Assembly (NCBI RefSeq): GCF_017921835.1
Contig: NZ_JAGEMN010000001.1
Location: 155,874-179,873 of the forward strand
Source of the DNA: Sporosarcina sp. 6E9
Lineage (GTDB): Bacteria > Bacillota > Bacilli > Bacillales_A > Planococcaceae
Direction of reading: 5' to 3'
Length of the DNA stretch: 24,000 nucleotides
In this document: in pieces, positions 10,816 to 23,320 of the stretch
How positions within the stretch are numbered: the first letter of the stretch is position 1
Layout of the letters: each line of letters begins with the position of its first letter
Notes under the pieces: generated by a model
Database searches by the model: none
The model's input: only the letters and a program-made list of their open reading frames with translations
Told to the model about the DNA's origin: nothing
Position numbers and translations under genes: made by a program

Positions 10816-11496
10816 TAAGTTTAAAATGAATAATTTAAAATAAAAGTGAGTCACAACAATCAGTTGCTTCTGATAAGGAGTTCTGGGTTGTTACACTCAT
10901 TTCAGGAAATTCAATACTTTACACTTATAATAAATATACTTAGCCAGAATTTAACGCATTCAAATCTACATCTATGTTATAGCAATAAAACACTTATTTT
11001 AAAATGGGTGTTTTTCGCTTAGCCTCCTCGCTCCTCACCTCCAAAACCAAAAGAATAGCTATGCTCATAAATAAACCAAGTAAACACGGGCGCATTATAT
11101 AAAGATACAGACGGGTTAATATTTGGTTCAATAAAAAGGATAAAATACTACAATTCAATCCTTCGGCGTATAAGTTTTTACTTAAATTTAAGAAATGATT
11201 TTCAGGTTCATTTTATCCCCTGGAATTTTGTACATAGTGACAACCTCTGGAATTTTGTTTTGACGACGCCTTCGTTAAATAGCAGGAAAGGCAGCAAACT
11301 CCCATCAAATTAGAATATCAATAAATTATTCCAACGAAACCAGATGTTAACAAACGTGGCGGATCAAACCATCCGTGAAGAGTTTACGAAGTATAAGAAA
11401 ATTACGGTTGAGAAGTATGGCTACGCTGAAATAAATGGATTCCAAAACGGCTGACCCCATAACTTAAATTTAGTTAGTTGCCATTAATCCGACACC

Positions 11497-11531
11497 AAAA
11501 AGCAGCACCTAAAATATGGTGCTGCTTTTTT
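11497..11531. terminator. bidirectional rho-independent terminator
   Basis: Stem aaaaagcagcacc (11497-11509) / ggtgctgcttttt (11518-11530) with an 8-nt loop. U-runs are available on both strands. It lies 12 nt beyond the stop of the minus-strand hydrolase gene. Confidence 0.8.
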
Positions 11532-11542
11532 CGAACGCTATT

Positions 11543-12826
11543 TTATTCATTAATAATAGATTCATAAACTGTATTCGCAATCGTTCTCGATAAAAGTCCT
11601 GTGCTTGAGTAAGAACCACTTGCTAAAGGACCGTTATTTTGTTTATTGGCTAATACAATGATTTGTAGATTGTTGACAGGGTCAAAGATGACTTGTGTTC
11701 CGGTAAAACCTGTATGGCCAAATGCTTGTCCAGAATGAAGATTGCCCATATACCAGGTTTGGTTTAGTTCCCAACCGTATCCTTGGCCGAATTGTTGAGG
11801 GGAAGTAAATTGATCGACAATCGCTTCATTATATAAGGAAACTTTTCCGTAACTGCCTTTGTTCAGCATCGTTTGACCGAGTACGGCTAAATCGCGCGCA
11901 GTTGAAAACAGACCGGCATGTCCTGCAACTCCTTGATTGGCATAAAAGCTATTTCCATCGTTTACTTCACCGATTAACGTATACTCTCTCCAATGCTTAA
12001 AGTCATCCGCATCTTCCTCGACGTAATAACCGAAGTTCGGATCATCTACCATTTTATATTCATATGGATTGCCCCATGAAGTGGCCGCAATTTTTTTGTT
12101 CGTTTTTTCTAGCGGGTTAAACATTGTATCTTTCATATTTAAAGGCTCGTAAATATTGTTTTCTAGATAGACATCCAATCGTTGTCCAGTAACTGCCTCG
12201 ATTACAAAACCAAGAGCCATATAGCTAAAATCACTATATTTGCGATTGGTGCCTGTCTCATATTCGAGCGGTAGTTCATTGATATAATCGAGTACTTCTG
12301 CTGGATTGGTTGCATGTAAGAAGGTCGGTGCCCAAGGTGTTAACCCAGATGTATGTGTGAGTAAATGTGCAATTTTCACTGCATCTTTTCCATTTTCCGC
12401 GAATTCGGGAATATATGTCGCAACCGGTTCGTGAATATCAATTACCCCTTCAGAAGCCAGTTTCATAATCCCTTGTGTTGTCCCCATGACTTTCGTCACC
12501 GATGCCAAATCAAAAATGGTCTTTTTCGTCATTTTTACAGGTTGCTGTAGTTTGTTGCCCATATCATAGAGTTGGGCATGTCCATATGCGGTTTCTTTGA
12601 CGATTTTATTGTCCTTTGCAACAAGGACGACAGCTCCTGGTGTAACCCCATTACGAATCGCATCTTCTACAATTTGATCGATTTCATTCAGTTTGTTTTG
12701 ATCCATCCCGACTGCATTTGGTGAACCTTGACTAAGTTTTTCTCCTAATTGTTTCGCACTGACCGGTGATGAGATAACAGCGGTCATTAAGAATAGGATA
12801 ATCGTACCGAAAACTAGTTTTCTCAC
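11543..12826 (-). CDS. secreted serine hydrolase of the beta-lactamase / DD-peptidase (class C-like) fold
   Basis: Signal peptide MRKLVFGTIILFLMTAVISSPVSA|K. S-x-x-K nucleophile motif in FDLASVTKVMGT, a YSD (Y-x-N-like) motif in RKYSDFSY, and HTGFTGT (the K/H-T-G box). GTG start 5 nt after ggaggag. Confidence 0.85.
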   Translation of the reverse strand: MRKLVFGTIILFLMTAVISSPVSAKQLGEKLSQGSPNAVGMDQNKLNEIDQIVEDAIRNGVTPGAVVLVAKDNKIVKETAYGHAQLYDMGNKLQQPVKMTKKTIFDLASVTKVMGTTQGIMKLASEGVIDIHEPVATYIPEFAENGKDAVKIAHLLTHTSGLTPWAPTFLHATNPAEVLDYINELPLEYETGTNRKYSDFSYMALGFVIEAVTGQRLDVYLENNIYEPLNMKDTMFNPLEKTNKKIAATSWGNPYEYKMVDDPNFGYYVEEDADDFKHWREYTLIGEVNDGNSFYANQGVAGHAGLFSTARDLAVLGQTMLNKGSYGKVSLYNEAIVDQFTSPQQFGQGYGWELNQTWYMGNLHSGQAFGHTGFTGTQVIFDPVNNLQIIVLANKQNNGPLASGSYSSTGLLSRTIANTVYESIINE

Positions 12827-12848
12827 ACATTCTCCTCCTAAGTTATAG

Positions 12849-12877
12849 TTGAAAATTCTAAATGTAAGCGTTATAAT
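12849..12877 (+). promoter_or_regulatory. sigma-A-type promoter of the nine-gene operon (TTGAAA-17 nt-TATAAT) with an overlapping cre-like half-site
   Basis: The -35 ttgaaa is at 12849-12854 and the -10 tataat at 12872-12877, with an exact 17-nt spacer. tgtaagcgttataa (12863-12876) has a perfect left cre half (TGTAAGCG) but a poor right half. Confidence 0.55.
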
Positions 12878-12977
12878 TACAATATACCATATTCTGTAGA
12901 TTCATTACAAGTATAATCAGAATATTGTAAACATCCAAGCCATAGGATTAGGTTACATAGTAAGGGGGGATGTGAGC

Positions 12978-14009
12978 TTGTCGCGATTAGAAAAAAGACT
13001 TGAGTTAGCAAAGAAGGAACTTCGTCGATCGGTCATAGATATAAATGCTGAAATCAACGATAAAACAGAACTTCCTGAGGGCGTATTATTTTACGGCATT
13101 AAAGATACGGATCAGATTCCAGCCCTTTTCCTAAACAGGCTTAGTGCTCACAAACGATTTTGTTGGTTAACGACTGATAAAGCAGCCAATAAAGGAAGAG
13201 CGATTGATACGGATTTATTAAATCCTTTAACGTATCGCGTCATGACTGGTTCGACAAGTGGGGGTCCAGTCAATATTTTAAAAGGGATTACTGATTTTGC
13301 AATTGGCACGGATGGGGGTGGCTCAGTATTAGCTCCGGCGATTAGCTGTCAACTCCCATCGATTATGGCTGCGGGTTTAGGTTTACATGTCAAAGAAGAT
13401 AAAACCTCAACTGATGGCATTCAATTTATGGGCAGTATTGGGGTGATTGGAAAAAGTGTACCTTTGCTGAAACAAATCACTGAAATTATGTTGGCAAGAG
13501 AACTGGATACAGATGAGGACGAACCAATAACCATTGCCATTCCGCAAAAAGGAACTGTGATGCGTCCAGATGGCCAAGATATGCATGCGGTAATCATGAA
13601 TTATCTCAACCGAATTAAGTTAAAACACGTAACAATTAAAGAAGTGGATATGACGGGAATTGATGAACGAAAACGCGCCATTGTAACCTTGCAAACTTGT
13701 TTTGAAGAAGTAGACTTTGTCCTAACTTGTGAAGGACCTGTTGATGTCTACGGATATGGAGAGACAATTCCGCAACAGTTTGGTCAAGCGGGAAGAGAGT
13801 TGACCAACGATCACGGAAAATATTTAATACGCGCTGCAAATATGTGTAAAGCAACAGCGGTAACTATTCCAACGACTGATATAGCCAGTGCCTTGGTTAT
13901 TGTCGCAAAAAATGGTTTATCACATGGTGCAAAGGCCATTCACTTAGCTGAAAAGTTTGAACAAGTCATTGAACTCCCAGAAGTTTGGCGACGCTACTTT
14001 TTAGCGTAA
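12978..14009 (+). CDS. compact amidase-signature (AS) family protein
   Basis: TGSTSGGPVNILKGITDFAIGTDGGGSVLAPAISC parallels the AS consensus GGSSGG....(x).LGTDtGGSIRiPA. An upstream GIKD could supply the catalytic Lys. The ORF opens at GTG 12972, but TTG 12978 is better spaced from aagggggga. At about 343 aa it is much shorter than typical AS enzymes. Confidence 0.6.
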   Translation: MSRLEKRLELAKKELRRSVIDINAEINDKTELPEGVLFYGIKDTDQIPALFLNRLSAHKRFCWLTTDKAANKGRAIDTDLLNPLTYRVMTGSTSGGPVNILKGITDFAIGTDGGGSVLAPAISCQLPSIMAAGLGLHVKEDKTSTDGIQFMGSIGVIGKSVPLLKQITEIMLARELDTDEDEPITIAIPQKGTVMRPDGQDMHAVIMNYLNRIKLKHVTIKEVDMTGIDERKRAIVTLQTCFEEVDFVLTCEGPVDVYGYGETIPQQFGQAGRELTNDHGKYLIRAANMCKATAVTIPTTDIASALVIVAKNGLSHGAKAIHLAEKFEQVIELPEVWRRYFLA

Positions 14010-14046
14010 GAGATAGAAAACAGGGGTGTGAGAAAGGAGCTGCTAC

Positions 14047-14979
14047 ATGAGCAGAATATGGGAAGTTTTATTCTCGAAAAATGGTCTAGCAGCTAAGCAA
14101 ATTGCTGAAATGCTAATACCCATTCATGAAGGTGAACGGATCCCACGTGTAGAGGATTTTGAGAACCAACTTTCAATTGGAAGGGGCACAGTTCAAGGGG
14201 CTTTGAAAGTGCTAGAAAGTTTACATGCCGTTCAATTAGAGTCACGTGGTCACTTGGGGACGTTTGTCGTTAAAAGAAATCTACATTTGTTAAAAGAGAT
14301 TGCTGGTGTTGGAGATCTTATGGGCGCCATGCCTTTACCATATTCGACTTTATATGAAGGTTTGGCTACGGGATTAATCGAGGTCTCAGACCAATTAATG
14401 AACGGTATCAATCTCGTATACATGCGTGGATCAAAGCAACGAGTAGAGGGGTTAAAATCCCGTAGATATGATTTCATAGTGCTATCTCAATTAGCCGCCG
14501 AAGAAGAAATGAAGCATGATGATCAGTTGACGATCGCCTTGGATTTTGGCCCAAACACGTATGTATCCTCACATAAGGTGTTTCTAGCCGATCCAAAGAA
14601 AAATGCAATCGAGCGTGGCATGCGCGTAGGCATTGACTACTCCTCTTTTGACCAGTTAAAAATTACGTTACTTGAATGTGAAGATATCGACGTCGAACTT
14701 GTCTCGATTAACTATATGCAACTATTTGAAAATCTACAAAATGGCACATTGGATGCGGCCGTTTGGAATTCCGATGAAAGCCGATCTGTAAAAGCATTTA
14801 AACAAGTTAACTTTCAATCTCAACAAGCAAGAGAGATTGCCAAGAAAGCGACTACATCGGTTATCTTAATTGAAAAGCAAAGGGAAGAGGTTTTCAATTA
14901 CTTTTCGCAACTAGATAAAGAGGAAGTAAAGCAGATTCAACAGTTGGTTGTTGACCATGAAAAAATACCGCATTATTAA
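14047..14979 (+). CDS. yhfZ: YhfZ-like transcriptional regulator (GntR-type winged helix-turn-helix plus a ligand-binding-like C-terminal domain)
   Basis: Winged-HTH segment IPRVEDFENQLSIGRGTVQGALKVLESLHAVQLESRGHLGTFVV. Its 310 aa compares with ~300 aa for E. coli YhfZ. It sits at the head of the yhf-type gene set. RBS aaaggag. Confidence 0.65.
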   Translation: MSRIWEVLFSKNGLAAKQIAEMLIPIHEGERIPRVEDFENQLSIGRGTVQGALKVLESLHAVQLESRGHLGTFVVKRNLHLLKEIAGVGDLMGAMPLPYSTLYEGLATGLIEVSDQLMNGINLVYMRGSKQRVEGLKSRRYDFIVLSQLAAEEEMKHDDQLTIALDFGPNTYVSSHKVFLADPKKNAIERGMRVGIDYSSFDQLKITLLECEDIDVELVSINYMQLFENLQNGTLDAAVWNSDESRSVKAFKQVNFQSQQAREIAKKATTSVILIEKQREEVFNYFSQLDKEEVKQIQQLVVDHEKIPHY

Positions 14980-15002
14980 GACATAATTTTTGGGAGGCAG
15001 CT

Positions 15003-15422
15003 ATGACTAAAGATGAGTTACGAACAAGACTGACAATATTACGCGATCAACATGTCATTAACGAACGGGCTTACGAAGTAACAAACATGGCTTTTGATAA
15101 GCTAATCGAATGCCTACAAGTAGACGATGTGACACAAGCAGAAATGTTGTTTACGCATTTACCAACAGCACTCACAAGAATTTCACAAGGTGAAGATGTT
15201 GAAGGGCCGTCAGCGGAAATGCTGGTAGAAATTAAACAATCCGAATACTATCCAATCGCTAGACAACAAGTTGACTATATTGAGAGCGTTTGGAAGGAAG
15301 CGATACCAAAAGCAGAAATTGATTTTTTATTATTACATTATACAAATGTCATTACGATAAACCAGGGAGGCAATCAGAATGAAAATTGTTGTTGGAGGAC
15401 AAATGGAAAAGAAAGAAATTGA
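15003..15422 (+). CDS. yhfY: YhfY-like small PRD-domain protein
   Basis: Assigned mainly from size (139 aa versus ~120) and from its position between the yhfZ-like and yhfU-like genes. RBS gggagg. Its 3' end overlaps the next gene by 44 nt. Confidence 0.5.
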   Translation: MTKDELRTRLTILRDQHVINERAYEVTNMAFDKLIECLQVDDVTQAEMLFTHLPTALTRISQGEDVEGPSAEMLVEIKQSEYYPIARQQVDYIESVWKEAIPKAEIDFLLLHYTNVITINQGGNQNENCCWRTNGKERN

Positions 15423-15738
15423 ACGAATGATTAAGGAGTTTGATCCATCGATTGAAACGACGATCAAATCTGATGTCGAAGCTGCAATGGCACTTAAAAC
15501 GGGACAAGTTGATTATTATTTAGGGGCTTGTCATACAGGTGGTGGCGGTGCATTAGCGATGGCCATTGCCATCATTGGCCGAAATCAATGTGAAACCGTA
15601 TCGATGCCAGGAAAACAGCCAGTAGAAGAAAAAGTGATCGAGGCAGTTAATGAGGGTAAAAAAGCATTTGGATTCACAGGGGATCATGCAAATCAAGCTG
15701 TTCCAATGATTTTACGAGCCATTAAGAACAAAAACTAA
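15379..15738 (+). CDS. yhfU: YhfU-like protein (DUF2620)
   Basis: A 119-aa protein with MKIVVGG...DVEAAMALKTGQVDYYLGACHTGGGGALAMAIAIIG, the Gly-rich GAC.TG.G.AL core I associate with YhfU/DUF2620. RBS gggagg, 7 nt before the ATG. Confidence 0.65.
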   Translation: MKIVVGGQMEKKEIERMIKEFDPSIETTIKSDVEAAMALKTGQVDYYLGACHTGGGGALAMAIAIIGRNQCETVSMPGKQPVEEKVIEAVNEGKKAFGFTGDHANQAVPMILRAIKNKN

Positions 15739-15766
15739 CTAAATTCAACCAGGGGGAGTGGGAAAA

Positions 15767-17059
15767 ATGGAAACATTGTTTATCGTTTTAATAGGTGCAG
15801 TAGCAGCCGTATTGGCTAACCAAAACATTGCTGTCTTTAATGATGGGTTACGTCCAATCGTTTCTGAACATGTTCAAGGAAATTTAAAGCGGAGAGATTT
15901 AGGTCTAACTGCATTTGCTATGAGTTTTGGATTGGTAATTGGATTTGGGATTCCTTTTACCATCACGGCGAGTATTATTTTAGTGCATAGTATTTTACTA
16001 GGTACTGATATCATTGGTTTAGTTGCCCCAAAAAATAAGTGGGGGAGTACAGTTGCGGCCATTGTCGGCGGTCTGTACGGGTGGGGTTTGTTAGCTGGGT
16101 TGGAAGGCTTTGTGAAATTATTTGAACACTTACCTGTTAACTTCTTAGATGCCATGGGCGAAGTTGGAACCCCAGTTGTGGTTACATTTATGGCTTTTCC
16201 AGCAATTGCTGTTGCGATGCAGTTTAGTATTCGTAAAGGTGTTTTAACCTTTGTAGTCGCGGCACTTGTTCGTCAGTTAGCTGTGTTTGTGAATACAGGT
16301 GGTTTTTTATCAATTGGTGGCAATGCGATTACGTTAAACCAAGAAGGTATGGCGTTAATTGTTGGAATGATTTTCCTATTTACTTATGCCATTAAAGAAA
16401 AAACGACTGATGGTTCAACAATTGATTTAGCAGCTGTTTTTGGTGATAAAGTGAAAGCGATCCGTAAAAATGTTGTTTTCTTCATGATCATTGGTGCGTT
16501 AATCGCGGGTGCGACGAACCTCTTATTAATGGCAGGAGATCCGATATCTTTAAGCTTACTTGCAGATGGGCAAAAGAATGATGCTGGGATTGCAGCAGCG
16601 GCTAGGGCCATTGGCTTTATCCCGTTAATCGCAAGTACAGCCATTGTAACGGGTGTTTATAGTCCAGTTGGATTTACACTCATTTTTGTTGTGGGTCTTT
16701 TCTCTCCAAATGTATGGATTGCGGTTATTGTCGGTGCCATCGTTATCTTTGGAGAAGTAATCCTGTTAGGATCAATTGCACGTTTCCTAGACAAATATCC
16801 TGGCGTTCGTAATTCTGGTGATAACATTCGTAATGCGATGACAAAAATTCTTGAAGTTGCTTTATTAATCGGTGGTGCGAATGCAGCTAACCTCATTGCA
16901 CCTGGATTTGGTTTCTTCTTTATCGCAGGATTCTATCTATTGAACGAAGTAGCAGGACGTCCAATCGTGCGTATGGCAATTGGACCAATTGGCGCGATTG
17001 CGGTTGGAATTATCGCGAATATCTTAGTGTTGCTAGGCATTATGGCAATTCCATCATAA
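15767..17059 (+). CDS. yhfT: YhfT-like polytopic membrane protein (putative transporter)
   Basis: About 430 aa and highly hydrophobic, with many predicted TM helices. The N-terminal ...ANQNIAVFNDGLRPIV resembles YhfT. The ORF opens at GTG 15758, but ATG 15767 is 9 nt after aggggga. Confidence 0.65.
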   Translation: METLFIVLIGAVAAVLANQNIAVFNDGLRPIVSEHVQGNLKRRDLGLTAFAMSFGLVIGFGIPFTITASIILVHSILLGTDIIGLVAPKNKWGSTVAAIVGGLYGWGLLAGLEGFVKLFEHLPVNFLDAMGEVGTPVVVTFMAFPAIAVAMQFSIRKGVLTFVVAALVRQLAVFVNTGGFLSIGGNAITLNQEGMALIVGMIFLFTYAIKEKTTDGSTIDLAAVFGDKVKAIRKNVVFFMIIGALIAGATNLLLMAGDPISLSLLADGQKNDAGIAAAARAIGFIPLIASTAIVTGVYSPVGFTLIFVVGLFSPNVWIAVIVGAIVIFGEVILLGSIARFLDKYPGVRNSGDNIRNAMTKILEVALLIGGANAANLIAPGFGFFFIAGFYLLNEVAGRPIVRMAIGPIGAIAVGIIANILVLLGIMAIPS

Positions 17060-17100
17060 AACCAGTCTATGTCTTAATCGCATCTTAGGAGTGAATGATA

Positions 17101-18015
17101 ATGATTCAAACTGTACAAGGGAAAATTAAAAAAGAGGATTTAGGAATATGTGCGGCTCATGAGCATCTTTCTATTGATTTATCAAGAATCAAAAATGATC
17201 CAGATACAATTTTAGATGATGAAGCGGGCATGGCGTCTGAATTAGCGCATTTTCACCGTGCTGGTGGGCGCTCTATGATTGAGTTAACCAATGAAGGTAT
17301 GGGTCGTGACACTGAACGGCTCAAACGTCTTAGTGAACAATCAAACATTCATATCATCACATGTACCGGTTTTTATAAAGATCCATTTATCCCAGAATTT
17401 GCACAAGGTTGGGACCGTGATCAATTTGCCGCGCATTTCATCCGTGAGATTGAACATGGGATTGGGGACACGGGAATTTTTCCGGGAATCATTGGTGAAG
17501 TAGGTACAAGTCACAATGAAATTAAACCGGTAGAAAATGAATTAATCATCGGTGCTGGCATGGCCGCTTTAAAAACAGGTGTAACTGTGACCACCCATAC
17601 GACCCTGGGAACGATGGGAATTGAGCAAATCGATATGTTGTTTAAACTAGGTGTCCCAAAAGAACAAATTATTATTGGGCACCAAGATTTAAACGCCAAT
17701 AAAGATGAAGTGCTTGAGGTGCTGCAATCCGGCGCTTATATCGGATTTGACACGATTGGAAAGAATAATTATAGACCTGATGAAGAACGCATTGCATTTT
17801 TACTAGACTTTATCGAACGAGGATATCATCAGCAAATTCTCTTATCGGCAGATTTAACGAGAAAATCTCATTGGCGAAAGCATGATGGACCTGGTTATGA
17901 CCTTGTTTTAAGGGATTTTATACCTGCATTAAAACAAAATGGCGTAACAGATGAAATGATTGATGATTTTCTCATCCATAATCCAGCAAATGCATTAGCA
18001 ATAAAGGAGCGGTAA
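17101..18015 (+). CDS. php: phosphotriesterase homology protein (Php/YhfV; amidohydrolase superfamily, binuclear metal site)
   Basis: The ligand pattern reads CAAHEHL (HxH), IIGEVGTS (a Glu rather than the carbamylated Lys, as in Php), VTTHT, IIGHQD and LLSADL (Asp). About 305 aa. ATG 17101 is better spaced from aggag than ATG 17095. Confidence 0.8.
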   Translation: MIQTVQGKIKKEDLGICAAHEHLSIDLSRIKNDPDTILDDEAGMASELAHFHRAGGRSMIELTNEGMGRDTERLKRLSEQSNIHIITCTGFYKDPFIPEFAQGWDRDQFAAHFIREIEHGIGDTGIFPGIIGEVGTSHNEIKPVENELIIGAGMAALKTGVTVTTHTTLGTMGIEQIDMLFKLGVPKEQIIIGHQDLNANKDEVLEVLQSGAYIGFDTIGKNNYRPDEERIAFLLDFIERGYHQQILLSADLTRKSHWRKHDGPGYDLVLRDFIPALKQNGVTDEMIDDFLIHNPANALAIKER

Positions 18016-18016
18016 T

Positions 18017-19153
18017 ATGGCTTATGATTTCTCTAAGTTAAAATATGCAGAATCAGTTATTCCGTCCAGGAGTATTCAAGAGGCACAGGATTTACAATTT
18101 AAGTTAGTCGATTGTATGCGTAAGCATTTTACCGGCGATCAATTTTTGTCGCTTGGTGATTTGGGCGTCGTTCCTGGATTACAACGACCAGCGCAAACAA
18201 AACGAGTTGAGGAAACTTTAGCAGACTTTTTTGGTACAGAAAGCGCGGCTTTAGTGAGAGGTGCAGGTACTGGTGCCATCCGTACAATCTTAAGTACATT
18301 GGTTGAACCAGGTGATAAGATGTTTATTCATCAGGCACCTGTTTATTCAACAACGGTAGAAACCTTTCGTTCACTTGGTATTGAAACGAAGCCTGTTGAT
18401 TACAATGATTTGGCTGCGGTTGAAGAAACCTTGAAAAAGGATACGACATGTAAAGTGTTTTACATTCAACATGCGAGACAACAACCGACAGATACGTATG
18501 ATCTTAAAGTGGTTATTCATTTAGTCAAAATGGTGCGTCCGGATGTCACCATCGTCAGTGATGACAATTACTGCGCCTTGAAAGCATATGGAATTGCTGC
18601 CGAATACGGTGCGGATTACTCTACATTCTCTGGGTTCAAGGTGCTTGGACCCGAGGGAATTGGTGTCATTGCAGGAAAAAAAGAAGCAATCTCATTATTA
18701 CAACATCGAAATTACTCTGGTGGTGGACAAGTTCAAGGTTACGAAGCGATGGAATTATTGCGGATGATGACATTCGCACCCGTTATGCTTGCGATACAAA
18801 ACGAACAAGTCCAAGAGGTTTGCCAACGATTAAATGAAGGCGAGATTGCTGGTGTCGAATCAGCCTATATGGTCAATGCGCAGTCAAAAGTAGTCATTCT
18901 TGAGTTGGATGAGCCAATTGCGCAACAGGTGATTCAAGCAAGCAATGAATTAGGTGCAGCGACACATCCCGTTGGCGCGGAATCGAAATATGAAATCCTA
19001 CCAATGATTTATCGGGTGTCAGGTACATTTCTTGCGGCCCAACCAAGGTTGAAAGAATATGGAATTAGGATTAATCCGATGAAATCAGGTGCTTCGACCG
19101 TATTAAACATCCTAGATAAAGCCATTAAACAAGTAAAAGAAGCGCGCGCATAA
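18017..19153 (+). CDS. yhfS: YhfS-like PLP-dependent enzyme (fold type I)
   Basis: Its 378 aa compares with ~360 for YhfS. A candidate PLP-lysine lies in a YSTFSGFKVLGPEGIG (S-x-x-K) context, and VSDDNY is an Asp-containing cofactor motif. The gene is translationally coupled: the php stop is at 18013-18015 and this ATG is at 18017. Confidence 0.65.
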   Translation: MAYDFSKLKYAESVIPSRSIQEAQDLQFKLVDCMRKHFTGDQFLSLGDLGVVPGLQRPAQTKRVEETLADFFGTESAALVRGAGTGAIRTILSTLVEPGDKMFIHQAPVYSTTVETFRSLGIETKPVDYNDLAAVEETLKKDTTCKVFYIQHARQQPTDTYDLKVVIHLVKMVRPDVTIVSDDNYCALKAYGIAAEYGADYSTFSGFKVLGPEGIGVIAGKKEAISLLQHRNYSGGGQVQGYEAMELLRMMTFAPVMLAIQNEQVQEVCQRLNEGEIAGVESAYMVNAQSKVVILELDEPIAQQVIQASNELGAATHPVGAESKYEILPMIYRVSGTFLAAQPRLKEYGIRINPMKSGASTVLNILDKAIKQVKEARA

Positions 19154-19177
19154 TATAGAGTACGGGAGGCTACTTCC

Positions 19178-20338
19178 ATGTTTTTGGACGTTACAAAACG
19201 AAGAAATTCCGAATTAATTAAAACGGGCGTTACGCTACATCAGGCGGGGGAAATCCCGCCTAACACCTATATCATTGATGTAGATATTTTGCGAGAAAAT
19301 GTAAGGAAATTAGTTCAAACTGCAGATCAAGCTATGATGGAATTATATTTAATGTCAAAACAATTAGGCCGTTTTCCTGAGATAGCAAAAATCATTGTGG
19401 AAGAAGGCATTACAAAAGCTGTGGCTGTAGATTTTGATGAAGGAAAAATATTGGCTGATCACGGAATAGCAATTGGGAATATTGGCCATTTAGTTCAACC
19501 TGGAAAACATCAGTGGGCAGAGGTATTAAGCTGGAAACCTGAAGTGGTCACGATTTTTTCGTATGAACGAGCGAAACAACTTTCTAATGCAACTGAACGA
19601 TTAGGCGTTAGCCAAGACATCATCCTGAAAGTATATGATGAACAAGATATGCTATATCCCGGTCAAGAAGGCGGTATCTTATTACAAAATTTAGCTGAAG
19701 AAATCGATAGCATTCAGCAACTTCCAGGTGTGGATATTGTGGGGCTTACAACATTTCCTAATCTACAACTAAATGCTACCAAGACGGAAATGGTACCAAC
19801 CCATAACTTAACAACGTTACTTGAAGCTAAAAAAGTCTTGATTCAAAAAGGAATTGCAATTAAGCAAATCAACGGGCCAAGCGGAACAAGTTGTGAAACG
19901 ATTCCATTTTTAGCTGCGCAAGGTATTACGCATAGTGAACCGGGTCACGGGCTGACAGGGACAACCCCACTTCATGCCTTTAAAGATCTACCGGAAAAAC
20001 CAGCGATTATTTATGTAACGGAAGTGTCGCATCAGGTTCGTGATAGCTATCAAGTCATTGCGGGTGGCTATTATGGTCGCTCCAATATGGAGGGCTGTTT
20101 AGTCGGAAGTGATCCAAATTCTATCTTCAATCAATATGCAAAGGCCGAACAGTTGAATCCCGACTCCATCGACTATTATGGACTCATTAATCATCAGGAT
20201 GACTTTTCGATCGAGATTGGAGACACCGCGATATTTGCCTTTCGCACACAAATCTTTGTCACCCGGGCTCATGTTGCTTTAGTCGAGGGAATCCAAAAAG
20301 GTCAACCTAAATTGATACATTTTGAAAGGAAGTGGTGA
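19178..20338 (+). CDS. yhfX: YhfX-like protein (alanine-racemase N-terminal-domain / fold type III PLP family)
   Basis: Its 386 aa compares with ~387 for YhfX. The N-terminus MFLDVTKRRNSELIKTGVTLHQAGEIPPNTYIIDVDIL fits my recollection of YhfX. Operon position also fits. RBS gggagg. Confidence 0.6.
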   Translation: MFLDVTKRRNSELIKTGVTLHQAGEIPPNTYIIDVDILRENVRKLVQTADQAMMELYLMSKQLGRFPEIAKIIVEEGITKAVAVDFDEGKILADHGIAIGNIGHLVQPGKHQWAEVLSWKPEVVTIFSYERAKQLSNATERLGVSQDIILKVYDEQDMLYPGQEGGILLQNLAEEIDSIQQLPGVDIVGLTTFPNLQLNATKTEMVPTHNLTTLLEAKKVLIQKGIAIKQINGPSGTSCETIPFLAAQGITHSEPGHGLTGTTPLHAFKDLPEKPAIIYVTEVSHQVRDSYQVIAGGYYGRSNMEGCLVGSDPNSIFNQYAKAEQLNPDSIDYYGLINHQDDFSIEIGDTAIFAFRTQIFVTRAHVALVEGIQKGQPKLIHFERKW

Positions 20339-20342
20339 CATC

Positions 20343-21575
20343 ATGGCTAAAATGATGTTACTCGTGATCGACAGTTTTGGGATTGGTGCAATGGATGATT
20401 GTAAAGATTATGTAGCGACAGACTGTCAGGCGATGACTTATCAACATATTCGAGAGATTAAAAAAGAAAAACTCCATATCCCAACGATGTATTCTCTCGG
20501 ACTTGGTGCACTTGTCGATGGCAAATCTGAGCCAGGGAATGCTTTTGGGTATTCAAAATTAGCCCATCACGGCGCTGATACGTATTTAGGACATCAGGAG
20601 ATTGCCGGGAGCTGTCCGAAAAACTCAACTAAACGATTGATGAAGGATATCCATCAAGACATGAAACAAGCATTAGAAGAAAGCGGTTATGAAGTACGCT
20701 ATCCAATTGAAGGGAGTCCAATCCTTTTAGTGAATGAAGCCGCTGTTGTCGCAGATAATTTAGAATCAGCTGTTGGAAATATAATTAATATAACAGCTGA
20801 TTTTAAAAAGATGCCTTTCAGAGAACTGAAAAAACTAGGAAATGTCGTCCGTAAAAACGTAGATACGTCTAGAGTAATCGCTTTTGGTGGCCCTCACACG
20901 TCGATTGAAAAAATACTTTCTTGTGTTGAGGAGACCGATCAAAACCAATGGGGCGTAGACACCCCAAAAGCAGGTGTCTATGGAAAAGGCTACGAGGTCT
21001 ACCATATGGGTTATGGAGTAGAAGTAGAAAAACAATTCCCAATGATAGCGGCAAAACATGGACTACCTGTCTATCGTCTCGGCAAAACAGCTGATGTTCT
21101 GCACGGTAAGGGCGTTGCAGAGCCGATTGTCGATACGACCCAGTTATTAAAGCGAGTAGCCGAAGCATACCATCAAGAAAAAAATGATGCTGCATTTTTA
21201 ATTAATGTTCAAGAAACGGACTTAGCAGGTCATTCCGAAGATGTTGATTGGTATGCCGCTTTACTGAACGAAGTCGATAGTTGGTTGACGGATTTTATCC
21301 CAACGATGGTAGCAGATGATCTACTCATTATCATGGCTGACCACGGTAATGATCCTACCATAGGACACTCCAACCATACGAGAGAATACGTCCCAATTCT
21401 GATTGTCGGTGAAAAGGTGAAAAAAGCGAATATTGGTTTACGCAACACAATGTCAGACATCGGCGCGACATTGTGTGACTTTTATGGATTGCCCATGACT
21501 GCAGAAGGAACTAGTTTTTTAGATGAAATTATCGATCGGAAGGAATTTATGATTTCGTGTAAAGTGAGTGAATGA
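20343..21575 (+). CDS. yhfW: YhfW-like phosphopentomutase-family metalloenzyme (alkaline-phosphatase superfamily)
   Basis: LLVIDSFGIGAMDD, ETDLAGH, IIMADHGNDPT and HTREYVPILIVG are DeoB-type phosphomutase metal and active-site motifs. The likely start is ATG 20343, 4 nt after the upstream stop. The ORF-track TTG at 20322 lies inside yhfX. Confidence 0.75.
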   Translation: MAKMMLLVIDSFGIGAMDDCKDYVATDCQAMTYQHIREIKKEKLHIPTMYSLGLGALVDGKSEPGNAFGYSKLAHHGADTYLGHQEIAGSCPKNSTKRLMKDIHQDMKQALEESGYEVRYPIEGSPILLVNEAAVVADNLESAVGNIINITADFKKMPFRELKKLGNVVRKNVDTSRVIAFGGPHTSIEKILSCVEETDQNQWGVDTPKAGVYGKGYEVYHMGYGVEVEKQFPMIAAKHGLPVYRLGKTADVLHGKGVAEPIVDTTQLLKRVAEAYHQEKNDAAFLINVQETDLAGHSEDVDWYAALLNEVDSWLTDFIPTMVADDLLIIMADHGNDPTIGHSNHTREYVPILIVGEKVKKANIGLRNTMSDIGATLCDFYGLPMTAEGTSFLDEIIDRKEFMISCKVSE

Positions 21576-21604
21576 CAGTGGGTTACAATAATATACTTCT
21601 ATTC

Positions 21605-21641
21605 AAAAGACGATTTCTATCATTTAAAGAAATCGTCTTTT
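21605..21641. terminator. rho-independent terminator closing the operon
   Basis: Perfect 13-bp stem, aaaagacgatttc (21605-21617) / gaaatcgtctttt (21629-21641), with an 11-nt loop. Confidence 0.75.
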
Positions 21642-21733
21642 GGTGCGCTTTGAATTCAATGTTTACAACAGCTTAACCCGTCACTTAATGGATATATTTT
21701 TTATCATTGGTACTTCATCTAAATTTTTTATGT

Positions 21734-23320
21734 TTATTTGCTTTTAATAATTCTTTTAATAATATCATGATTCTCTTCTTTGGAATTTAAGGTAAGCTCA
21801 AAGCACTTTTTTGATTCGCTATAATATGCAGTGACACTCATATCATCTAGTAATATATTACTTCTAATATCAGTAAGAGCATCTACTAAAGAAATATGTT
21901 CCTGTTTTTTATGGCTATAGTCATTTAACCCGGTTTTATATTCTGCTTCTAAAGTGATATATCTGCGATCAAAATAATCATCAGCTTTGATGGGGTTAAA
22001 TTTTCTGCGATACAAACTACCGTTTAAATATCGCAAATCAGGATAGAAATCCTCTTCTATATATTCGGCATCCGAAATACCATTACTAATATAATAAACC
22101 TGACAATTAATCTGATTGTTAATTTTCCATCTGACTGTTAATCGAATTATTTCAGAGTTGTAATAATAGGATTGATAGCTTTTACCTGAATTCGATAGAT
22201 CGAAAAAAAGTTGTAATTCATTTTCCGTTATAGGCTCATCTATTTTCAAAATCTCATCTTTTAGTGGGAAAGAGTCATATTTTCTGAATGGATAAATTAA
22301 TCCGTGCTTATTAAATGACTTTTTTGTAAAATATAATGATTCGTATTCTGCTTCTAAACTATTCATCTTCTCTTTAATGCGTTCGATTTCTTTGATTTCA
22401 GTTATACAAAAGTTTAAATAATCAAACTCATAGTTTTTATTTTTAAAATAAGTAGCTAGATACTTTTTTGCTGGAATGTCATTTTCAAAAATAACCTTTT
22501 TCATTCTACCAAGAAGCAGTTTATTTTCACCGACACTAGTCTTAGAAAGTGATGATATAATTGCTTCTTCCAGGTTACTTATTTGGTTAGAGTATTCGGT
22601 GTATAAGTCATTTATTCTTTTATAGTCTTGATCATATCTCTCTGAGGGAAATTCTAATTCAATTTTTAATGATTCATATTCACTTAAGATGTTAGGACTA
22701 ATCTCTTCTGATTCAGAAATTAAAAATGACTTTAAAAAGTTGAATCGGGAGTATCCGAAGTCGGTAAGATTTTTCAAATTGTTGAACTCCCAAATTTTTA
22801 ATTTTACCGAATCCCCATTTGTTTTGTTATAACCATCCTTAGTATCAGTGAGAGATAGTAATTGATTAAAGCCGAAAAAACTACTCAAAAACTCTTGAAT
22901 AAGCTGTCTTTCAAGACTAATGGACTCATCTTGATCTGTATTTTTAATTATTACCATTTTTAAGTCAGATAATTGACAGTTATTATCTACCATGTATTTG
23001 AATATTTTACATGATTTATAGGAACCTTCATAAAAAGGAATCGTGTTCCTGAAAAAATATCTGTAGTACTCATTATAGGAGAGGCGATTAAGTGCCAATA
23101 TTTCTTTTTTATGTTCTTTCCATCTTTTTTGAAAGTTATTAGTTCTACCAATATAGATAGGCAGCACGGAAGATGAAGTGAAATTATCTACATAAAGAAG
23201 ATATACTCCTGATTTTTTATTTTTTGTAAAGTTATTAACGTGATTATTTCTTCTTAGATTAATCAATTCCAGTACTTTTCTTTTAATAACGTTAAACGTT
23301 TCAGGTACTTCATCATTCAT
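21734..23320 (-). CDS. GIY-YIG nuclease-domain protein with a large uncharacterised C-terminal region
   Basis: GVYLLY-x10-PIYIGRTNNFQKRWKEH ... SLERQLIQEFLSSFFGFNQ supplies GIY, YIG, Arg, His, Glu and Asn in canonical GIY-YIG order (nt 22862-23218). The remaining ~375 aa are rich in coiled-coil-like segments and have no motif I can place. The ORF opens at 23503, but an RBS (aagggg, 23330-23335) 9 nt before ATG 23320 (MNDEVPE...) marks the likelier start. Confidence 0.75.
   Translation of the reverse strand: MNDEVPETFNVIKRKVLELINLRRNNHVNNFTKNKKSGVYLLYVDNFTSSSVLPIYIGRTNNFQKRWKEHKKEILALNRLSYNEYYRYFFRNTIPFYEGSYKSCKIFKYMVDNNCQLSDLKMVIIKNTDQDESISLERQLIQEFLSSFFGFNQLLSLTDTKDGYNKTNGDSVKLKIWEFNNLKNLTDFGYSRFNFLKSFLISESEEISPNILSEYESLKIELEFPSERYDQDYKRINDLYTEYSNQISNLEEAIISSLSKTSVGENKLLLGRMKKVIFENDIPAKKYLATYFKNKNYEFDYLNFCITEIKEIERIKEKMNSLEAEYESLYFTKKSFNKHGLIYPFRKYDSFPLKDEILKIDEPITENELQLFFDLSNSGKSYQSYYYNSEIIRLTVRWKINNQINCQVYYISNGISDAEYIEEDFYPDLRYLNGSLYRRKFNPIKADDYFDRRYITLEAEYKTGLNDYSHKKQEHISLVDALTDIRSNILLDDMSVTAYYSESKKCFELTLNSKEENHDIIKRIIKSK

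Follow-up and report, generated by a model that had tools for sequence, protein, structure and literature searches.

Gene Content of the yhf/php Locus

We analyzed a 24,000-nt stretch of the Sporosarcina sp. 6E9 genome (contig NZ_JAGEMN010000001.1, positions 155,874 to 179,873; hereafter the window) that carries, at window positions 11543–21575, a gene cluster of the type known from Escherichia coli as yhf/php, together with two genes for hydrolytic enzymes. The families of the encoded proteins were assigned by searching the open reading frames (ORFs) of the window against the Pfam and NCBIfam profiles. Ten intact ORFs are found within 11543–21575, at the coordinates given in a first-pass annotation made from the sequence alone. 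Nine of them lie on the plus strand; the tenth, encoding an exported hydrolase that we call B, lies on the minus strand and is transcribed divergently.

The first-pass annotation had proposed a complete yhfZ/Y/U/T-php-yhfS/X/W-type set, and the profiles indeed place all eight genes of 14047–21575 in the expected families. The first four, all on the plus strand like the rest of the set, encode the regulator YhfZ with HTH_41 and YhfZ_C domains (14047..14979; NF041241 (YhfZ_full), 360 bits, cut-off 260; 32% identity to E. coli YhfZ), the stand-alone PRD protein YhfY (15003..15422; PF00874, 38.7 bits), the DUF2620 protein YhfU with an RpiB-like predicted fold (15379..15738; PF10941, 159 bits), and the membrane protein YhfT, presumably a permease (15758..17059; PF10797, 560 bits; 35% identity to E. 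coli YhfT). They are followed by genes for Php, a binuclear-metal amidohydrolase of the phosphotriesterase (PTE) family (17095..18015; PF02126, 263 bits), YhfS, a fold-type I pyridoxal 5'-phosphate (PLP) enzyme (18017..19153; YhfS-like_C, 153 bits; 46% identity to E. coli YhfS), YhfX, a PLP protein with the alanine-racemase fold (19178..20338; Ala_racemase_N and YhfX-like_C), and YhfW, a phosphopentomutase-type metalloenzyme (20322..21575; NF009049 (PRK12383 type), 484 bits, cut-off 254; 39% identity to E. coli YhfW).

In full-length alignments, all eight share 30–46% identity with their E. coli K-12 counterparts (YhfZ/Y/U/T, Php, and YhfS/X/W). Six of the eight pass family-specific models, while YhfY matches PRD only and Php stays under the cut-off of NF007373 (271 bits, cut-off 486). 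The best solved relatives of YhfS, YhfX, and Php are their E. coli namesakes (PDB 4J8L, 332 bits; 4KBX, 304 bits; and 1BF6/4LEF, 240 bits, respectively). Diagnostic residues are retained: YhfU contains the motif GACHTGGGGAL, and Php keeps all six metal ligands (H22, H24, E135, H168, H196, and D253).

In E. coli K-12, the same eight families are encoded by co-directional, tightly packed genes (b3376–b3383) that likewise retain the Php ligands, but their order is yhfZ-yhfY-yhfX-yhfW-php-yhfU-yhfT-yhfS. The order in the window, Z-Y-U-T-php-S-X-W, which the first-pass annotation had rightly set apart from that of E. coli, is the commonest one among the surveyed loci of Bacillota. The two clusters also differ in that the E. 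coli one has neither of two further genes present in the window, encoding hydrolase B (11543..12826, minus strand; 427 aa), an exported serine hydrolase of the AmiE/PBP4B type (PF00144, 238 bits; NF002968, 324 bits, cut-off 385), and AmiS (12972..14009, plus strand; 345 aa), a small amidase with the amidase-signature (AS) fold whose gene is the first of the operon (PF01425, 25.8 bits, cut-off 27). In line with the first-pass annotation, the yhf/php genes have no assigned function: the RefSeq products of K-12 are still "putative" or "uncharacterized," PDB entries 4KBX and 4J8L are titled "Uncharacterized protein," and our full-text literature searches on yhfS/T/U/W/X/Z, DUF2620, and Php found no functional study.

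Operon Structure and a Shared Control Region

The nine co-directional genes are separated by at most 37 nt and framed by one strong predicted promoter and one predicted terminator. Two gene pairs overlap, yhfY and yhfU by as much as 44 nt (15379–15422). With 139 aa, YhfY is longer than the median of ~125 aa among its relatives, and its last ~14 codons may be a local extension. The predicted terminator hairpin (21603..21643, plus strand) begins 28 nt past the yhfW stop codon and has a 16-bp stem, a folding energy of –19.4 kcal/mol (z-score –5.6 against shuffled sequences), and a 3' arm ending in U-U-U-U; within the operon, no convincing internal terminator was found.

Upstream of the operon lies a sigma-A-type promoter, TTGAAA-17-TATAAT (12849..12877, plus strand), with 11 of 12 consensus matches the best within 11300–21900. 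Its –10 box is directly followed by a palindrome, AATATAC-N8-GTATATT with one mismatch (12881..12902), which we presume to be the binding site of YhfZ. The same layout is common to many related loci. The 7-mer AATATAC occurs in 65 of the 86 upstream regions of yhf clusters, whereas in shuffled sequences even the most frequent 7-mer reaches no more than 24, and alignment of its occurrences yields the palindrome AATATAC-N8-GTATATT, usually right behind the –10 box. In the window, this operator has a single match at up to two mismatches, where 0.19 would be expected. A catabolite-responsive element (cre)-like box with one mismatch to WTGNAANCGNWNNCW is located between the –35 and –10 boxes (12862..12876, plus strand). 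Of 67 promoters with the operator, 19 have a box of this kind at the same offset; the background rate is 1% per 45-nt window.

The operator appears to serve both transcription directions. It follows the –10 box of the plus-strand promoter, covering part of the start region on that strand, and overlaps the –10 box of a promoter-like site for B on the minus strand (12910–12881). Elsewhere, perfect or one-mismatch copies precede the genes for B and/or AmiS in six loci (L012, L027, L097, L098, L122, and L129; yhf and related loci carry L numbers). In Oceanotoga, Jeotgalibaca, Paraliobacillus, L122, and L129, it is the hydrolase gene that has a copy immediately upstream; the amidase gene is preceded by one in Mesobacillus and Paraliobacillus. 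The first-pass annotation had named independent regulation of the amidase and hydrolase genes as an outcome that would refute its reading; to the extent that sequence can decide, the comparison speaks against this, since in the window as well as in other genomes the conserved operator precedes both genes.

The E. coli K-12 cluster contains a variant palindrome, ATATTC-N8-GAATAT, between yhfY and yhfX (L015:17009-17028). Its half-sites differ from those of the window, while the spacing is that of the Gram-positive operator, and it is possibly the site of E. coli YhfZ.

Recurrence of the Two Extra Genes in yhf Clusters

The yhf loci compared here were gathered in three ways: from a sample of genomes of the phylum, from 80 species by a YhfT profile (the best 80 of ~550 genome loci), and by looking up homologues of the two extra proteins. 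We then clustered the ORFs of 89 yhf loci by single-linkage grouping. Outside the core, strong recurrence was confined to two families, the mini-amidase with 27 loci and the B-type hydrolase with 22. NagB-like proteins (PF01182) came next with 10 loci, and PHP-domain phosphoesterases and inosine-uridine nucleoside hydrolases were found in 8 and 4 loci, respectively.

B-type hydrolases with 62–73% identity are encoded in 17 of the 80 YhfT-anchored loci, and across all sources the homologues within yhf clusters share 59–76% identity with B. Loci in which such a close homologue is part of a yhf cluster or adjoins one come from Bacillaceae, Clostridium, Lactobacillales, and Thermotogota. Neither gene is tied to one place. 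The amidase gene was seen in at least four positions, namely ahead of yhfZ, between yhfT and php, and behind either yhfX or yhfW. For the hydrolase gene there are at least five: it can be divergent, lie upstream or downstream of the cluster, stand between yhfU and yhfT, or replace yhfW. Starting from the proteins instead of the clusters, all seven amidase homologues that were looked up (Mesobacillus, a Synergistaceae metagenome-assembled genome [MAG], Clostridium, and four metagenome contigs) and all three hydrolase homologues (a Clostridium paraputrificum type, Oceanotoga of Thermotogota, and Jeotgalibaca) were encoded in yhf clusters. The closest relative of the window's amidase, at 83% identity, is found on a metagenome contig with the identical layout b|A-Z-Y-U-T-P-S-X-W, where b is the divergent hydrolase gene, A that of the amidase, and P php.

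We considered the possibility that the two genes exclude each other, as only 1 of the 80 loci in the Bacillaceae-dominated sample has both, and rejected it: they co-occur in Clostridium, Thermotogota, Lactobacillales, and metagenome loci. In total, both were seen together in the window and in L027, L096 (Clostridium), L097 (Thermotogota), L098 (Lactobacillales), L122, and L129. The first-pass annotation had described the amidase and the hydrolase as additions to the cluster. Both genes are real, but they are not peculiar to this genome and belong to the recurrent accessory genes of yhf clusters. The association of the two with the yhf set that it had proposed is borne out by the way in which distant lineages have both genes with the cluster, in varying places and preceded by the conserved operator.

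The Exported Hydrolase as a Paralogue of an AmiE-Like Protein

Hydrolase B has the motifs expected of a beta-lactamase-fold serine enzyme (SVTK109, YSD197, and HTG371) and a Sec signal peptide ending VSA|KQ. Inspection of the N-termini of homologues likewise showed export signals. By a crude test of hydrophobicity, 86 of 116 full-length homologues were flagged, and the listed exceptions were misses of the test, which overlooks clear signal peptides, or an N-terminally shortened gene call. The PBP4B/YfeW model NF002968 is by far the best NCBIfam model for B, and one orthologue carries the name YbbE in its source. Longer homologues have extra N- or C-terminal regions, in which no Pfam domain was found.

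B is 40% identical, across the whole catalytic domain, to the product of the genome's own amiE-like gene, a protein of 609 aa with an InhA-like MAM domain. The two differ by an insertion of ~24 residues in B, which also lacks ~80 N-terminal and ~130 C-terminal residues of its paralogue. The divergent, secreted SxxK serine hydrolase of the first-pass annotation thus holds with respect to motifs and signal peptide, while its classification as a generic DD-peptidase or esterase gives way to that of an AmiE-like paralogue.

The genome's own amiE-like gene lies together with nagZ (GH3) and namZ on contig C21 (C21:60072-65293; L121:7072-12293), and a murQ gene above its cut-off is found at C9:2112851-2113720. 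Besides the yhf cluster, the genome thus holds the standard set for rescuing muropeptides and N-acetylmuramic acid (MurNAc). In Bacillus subtilis, muropeptide rescue is encoded by murQ-murR-murP-amiE-nagZ-namZ, where AmiE is an exported MurNAc-L-alanine amidase of the beta-lactamase fold (PMC5061867, PMC8054146). The window resembles this system in having the gene of a putative exported beta-lactamase-fold serine amidase beside an operon for uptake and catabolism, but the partners of B are yhf genes and not murQ/murP/nagZ/namZ; a placement of B in a MurNAc/muropeptide recycling operon was thus not found. Since the amiE-nagZ-namZ trio and murQ are present elsewhere in the genome, we conclude that B is an additional, yhf-dedicated paralogue and not the housekeeping enzyme. 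The same genes weaken the idea that the cluster replaces a missing MurQ route.

A Compact Branch of the Amidase-Signature Superfamily

The match of AmiS to PF01425 is below the gathering threshold and covers the Gly/Ser-rich signature. The structure predicted by AlphaFold2 (predicted local distance difference test [pLDDT] score 92) has the AS fold: AS enzymes account for every one of the first 50 Foldseek hits, each with probability 1.00 and TMq of 0.55–0.68. The top matches, among them GatA, malonamidase E2, and FAAH, have TMq of ~0.65 and 12–16% sequence identity. Among 36 homologues, K44, S94/S96, and S118 vary little or not at all, and AmiS is therefore probably catalytically active.

AmiS shares with AS enzymes (GatA, malonamidase E2, FAAH, and allophanate hydrolase; PF01425) the predicted fold and the Gly/Ser-rich signature, and its conserved Ser, Ser, and Lys are candidates for the Ser-cisSer-Lys triad. 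It differs from these enzymes in its length of 345 aa compared with >400, its low sequence identity, its score under the Pfam cut-off, and its membership in a family of its own tied to yhf clusters. A profile search of 1.84 billion representatives delimited this family to 103 clusters (50% identity) at E ≤ 1e-30, with full-length members of 305–390 aa; ordinary amidases appear near E 1e-10. Set apart in this way, AmiS is a separate, compact branch of the AS superfamily. The earlier call of an AS-family amidase as the first gene was thus correct in fold and signature and has to be amended in that the protein represents a mini-family and not an ordinary AS enzyme.

Hints to the Core Pathway

The predicted structure of YhfU (AlphaFold2 pLDDT 95) has RpiB proteins as all of its top 13 Foldseek matches, the best with TM 0.72 and a root-mean-square deviation of 2.8 Å; the best EIIB structure ranks 44th with TM 0.42. 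Two cysteines of YhfU are invariant, C51 in the Gly-rich loop and C71. With hhalign, C51 falls onto the invariant Cys63 of the RpiB alignment, the catalytic Cys of RpiB, with a probability of only 15%. YhfU further has a Cys and then T-G-x-G at the start of a helix, possibly corresponding in place to the invariant C-G-T-G-I-G of the RpiB/LacAB isomerases (PF02502). It is, however, 30 residues shorter than these, and the conserved columns of YhfU contain no counterpart of the RpiB-invariant N-terminal D-H-G-G and C-terminal R-H. YhfU had no match to PF02502 at E up to 10, and a search of the genome with this model found the true rpiB only; at the same threshold, YhfU, YhfT, and YhfY had no weak Pfam matches to other families. 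YhfU may be a phospho-carrier instead of an isomerase.

Other members of the core carry marks of the phosphotransferase system (PTS) and of phosphosugars. Of the PRD histidines of YhfY, H52 is conserved in 81 of 81 homologues and H112 in 78 of 81. The nearest solved relative of Php outside its own family is PDB 3PNZ, presumably the phospho-furanose lactonase Lmo2620 of Listeria, and the second-best NCBIfam model of Php is that of the phospho-furanose lactonase. In six clusters lacking yhfW (L043, L053, L057, L074, L078, and L089), its slot is taken by a B-type hydrolase and/or a PHP-domain (PF02811) phosphoesterase, which suggests that the phosphate-handling step can be performed by a phosphatase.

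Several loci add observations of their own. In one metagenome operon with the order Y-A-U-T-Z-P-S-X-W, a gene for HPr (PTS-HPr) overlaps the end of yhfW, and a further gene is cut by the contig end (L128:18188-18448); this was the only locus with such a linkage. Genes of the NagB/6-phosphogluconolactonase family (PF01182) adjoin the cluster in L097 (352-1077) and in 10 Bacillota loci (e.g., L003:2935-3690), spanning Thermotogota, Clostridia, and Bacilli. A Bacillus sp. has a second, diverged Y-U-T trio upstream of a full cluster, its YhfU being 44% identical to that of the window (L049:9630-14445). The locus of the Synergistaceae MAG (L013:4558-11876) consists of a reduced set, comprising a PRD-like protein, DUF2620, AmiS, and YhfS, along with a pyrroline-5-carboxylate (P5C)-reductase-like gene and the gene of a protein of 852 aa that has no assignment; neither YhfT nor Php was seen there. 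Finally, a distant YhfT-like membrane protein (29% identity) is encoded without other yhf genes in L011 (6320-10572), where its neighbors are a GH1 glycosidase and a gene of the ADP-ribosylglycohydrolase family. We considered the contexts of such distant YhfT-only homologues (L010 and L011) and set them aside, the GH1 and ADP-ribosylglycohydrolase genes giving loose hints only.

Taken together, the hints from YhfU, YhfY, HPr, Php, and the phosphoesterases point to a phosphorylated, sugar-like amine and to involvement of the PTS and do not single out one compound. The kinship of B with AmiE and the NagB-like neighbors favor a hexosamine; the type of the mutase, the RpiB-like fold of YhfU, and the nucleoside hydrolases favor a pentose derivative.

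Proposed Function and Alternative Explanations

We think it fairly probable that the region constitutes one regulated unit for the uptake and breakdown of a compound, consisting of the nine-gene operon amiS-yhfZ-yhfY-yhfU-yhfT-php-yhfS-yhfX-yhfW and the divergent gene of an exported AmiE-type serine amidase. The part concerning the unit and its regulation is well supported by the sequence comparisons. As for the substrate, an amide-linked, amino-sugar-like, probably cell-wall-derived compound with PTS-linked uptake is our best guess, and a tentative one. The class proposed in the first-pass annotation (amide-linked, containing a D-amino acid or a sugar, and phosphorylated) is consistent with the evidence and keeps the standing of a suggestion.

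Under this model, YhfZ bound to the operator would repress both divergent promoters until an inducer appears, and CcpA acting through the cre box would add catabolite repression. The exported hydrolase would cleave the amide bond of an extracellular conjugate, which, by analogy to AmiE freeing MurNAc from its peptide, would most likely be a cell-wall-derived amino sugar-peptide or a similar compound of a sugar acid and an amino acid. YhfT would import the freed unit, probably coupled to a phosphotransferase relay in which YhfY, through its PRD, would be the sensor and the cysteine protein YhfU a phospho-carrier or isomerase. Inside the cell, the mini-amidase would take off a remaining amide-linked group, and Php, the two PLP enzymes, and the phosphomutase would convert the phosphorylated amino compound to central metabolites. 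A more far-reaching version holds that YhfY/YhfU/YhfT are a new type of phosphotransferase-coupled importer, with an RpiB-fold cysteine carrier and not a classical EIIB, and that the whole yhf/php system, that of E. coli included, is a second, MurQ-independent route for a peptidoglycan-derived amino sugar, freed from its peptide by the exported AmiE paralogue outside and the mini-amidase inside the cell; we regard this version as speculative and rather unlikely.

Several observations weigh against the proposed unit or its substrate. Some 25–36 of the 80–89 surveyed clusters, as well as that of E. coli, have neither extra gene, and the core pathway can therefore do without them; moreover, the surveyed loci come mostly from related Bacillaceae and are not independent of each other. 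B scores under the equivalog cut-off for PBP4B, the alignment of YhfU with RpiB is weak in sequence, and neither YhfU nor YhfT has a Pfam match to an EIIA, EIIB, or EIIC family. The substrate is inferred from family resemblance and neighboring genes, and because the genome already has murQ and amiE-nagZ-namZ, it is probably not a plain MurNAc-peptide.

The absence of both genes from part of the clusters would also be expected if the two hydrolase genes were mere neighbors in a variable region, functionally unconnected to the yhf genes, or if the exported enzyme were a stand-alone penicillin-binding protein or beta-lactamase, as its classical SxxK, YxN-type, and HTG motifs would allow. Both genes, however, follow yhf clusters at changing positions in four phyla or orders, the hydrolase gene even inside the operon between yhfU and yhfT; the cluster's own operator precedes both, and every homologue looked up, seven of AmiS and three of B, was found in a yhf cluster, which makes a chance neighborhood very improbable. 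The pathway might instead serve the peptide half of a conjugate: the exported hydrolase would free a D-amino-acid peptide, such as a peptidoglycan stem peptide, YhfT would import it, the mini-amidase and Php would act as peptidases, and the PLP enzymes, one with a racemase and one with an aminotransferase fold, would dispose of the D-amino acids. Two PLP enzymes in the core, one of them of the alanine-racemase fold, agree with this, as do weak NCBIfam hits to amino-acid racemases and gamma-lyases, the resemblance of B to D-amino-acid amidases and D-peptidases of the same fold, and the Synergistaceae mini-cluster uniting DUF2620, AmiS, and YhfS with a P5C-reductase-like gene. Such a pathway leaves without a role the phosphopentomutase-type YhfW with its PHP-domain phosphoesterase stand-ins, as well as the RpiB-like YhfU and the links to PRD, HPr, and NagB-like proteins, and there is no kinase or ATP-grasp enzyme to account for a phosphorylated peptide; we consider it improbable.

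The phosphosugar marks would be accommodated by a pentose-based (ribosyl) amino compound, for example, a ribosylated amino acid or amine or a natural product resembling a peptidyl- or aminoacyl-nucleoside, from which the amidases would strip the acyl or peptidyl part and leave the core to handle an amino-pentose phosphate. YhfW belongs to the phosphopentomutase branch, the best structural matches of YhfU are ribose-5-phosphate isomerases B, and Php leads to the phospho-furanose lactonases both by its nearest solved nonfamily relative, 3PNZ, and by its second-best NCBIfam model; inosine-uridine nucleoside hydrolase genes adjoin the cluster in four loci, and a distant YhfT-like gene lies beside an ADP-ribosylglycohydrolase gene. 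The loci with nucleoside hydrolases are few and closely related, however, YhfU has no detectable sequence signature of RpiB, and the NagB-like neighbors and the AmiE kinship of B indicate hexosamines. A ribosyl substrate thus seems improbable as well.

The proposed uptake and breakdown unit bears on an E. coli operon that ranks among the better-known orphans, for which the structures of Php, YhfX, and YhfS have been solved and have no functional name in RefSeq and PDB. The extra genes narrow the search for the yhf substrate and make a long-standing question more testable, offering three handles: an exported enzyme akin to a characterized muropeptide amidase, which reduces the candidate precursors to a few; a mini-amidase family so closely tied to the pathway that it is nearly diagnostic of it; and the operator with its promoter (12849–12902), usable as a sensor for inducers. 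With the substrate identified, eight to ten genes could be annotated in hundreds of species, and with them the ~100 amidase clusters that have no family model. New in this work are the kinship of B to the genome's own amiE and its mobile, recurrent association with yhf clusters across Bacillota and Thermotogota, the operators before both extra genes, the filling of the yhfW slot by a phosphoesterase and/or hydrolase, and the status of the cluster as an island in the genus.

Origin of the Cluster

A search for YhfT in 60 further species of the genus found it in none of them (of the 61 genomes covered, 57 were of high quality), and we therefore take the cluster to be an island, acquired horizontally and rare in the genus. 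Across the phylum, 12 of 401 sampled genomes, this one included, encode a YhfT above the family cut-off. The cluster also stands out by its base composition, with a G+C content of 39–42% compared with 28–38% in the flanks.

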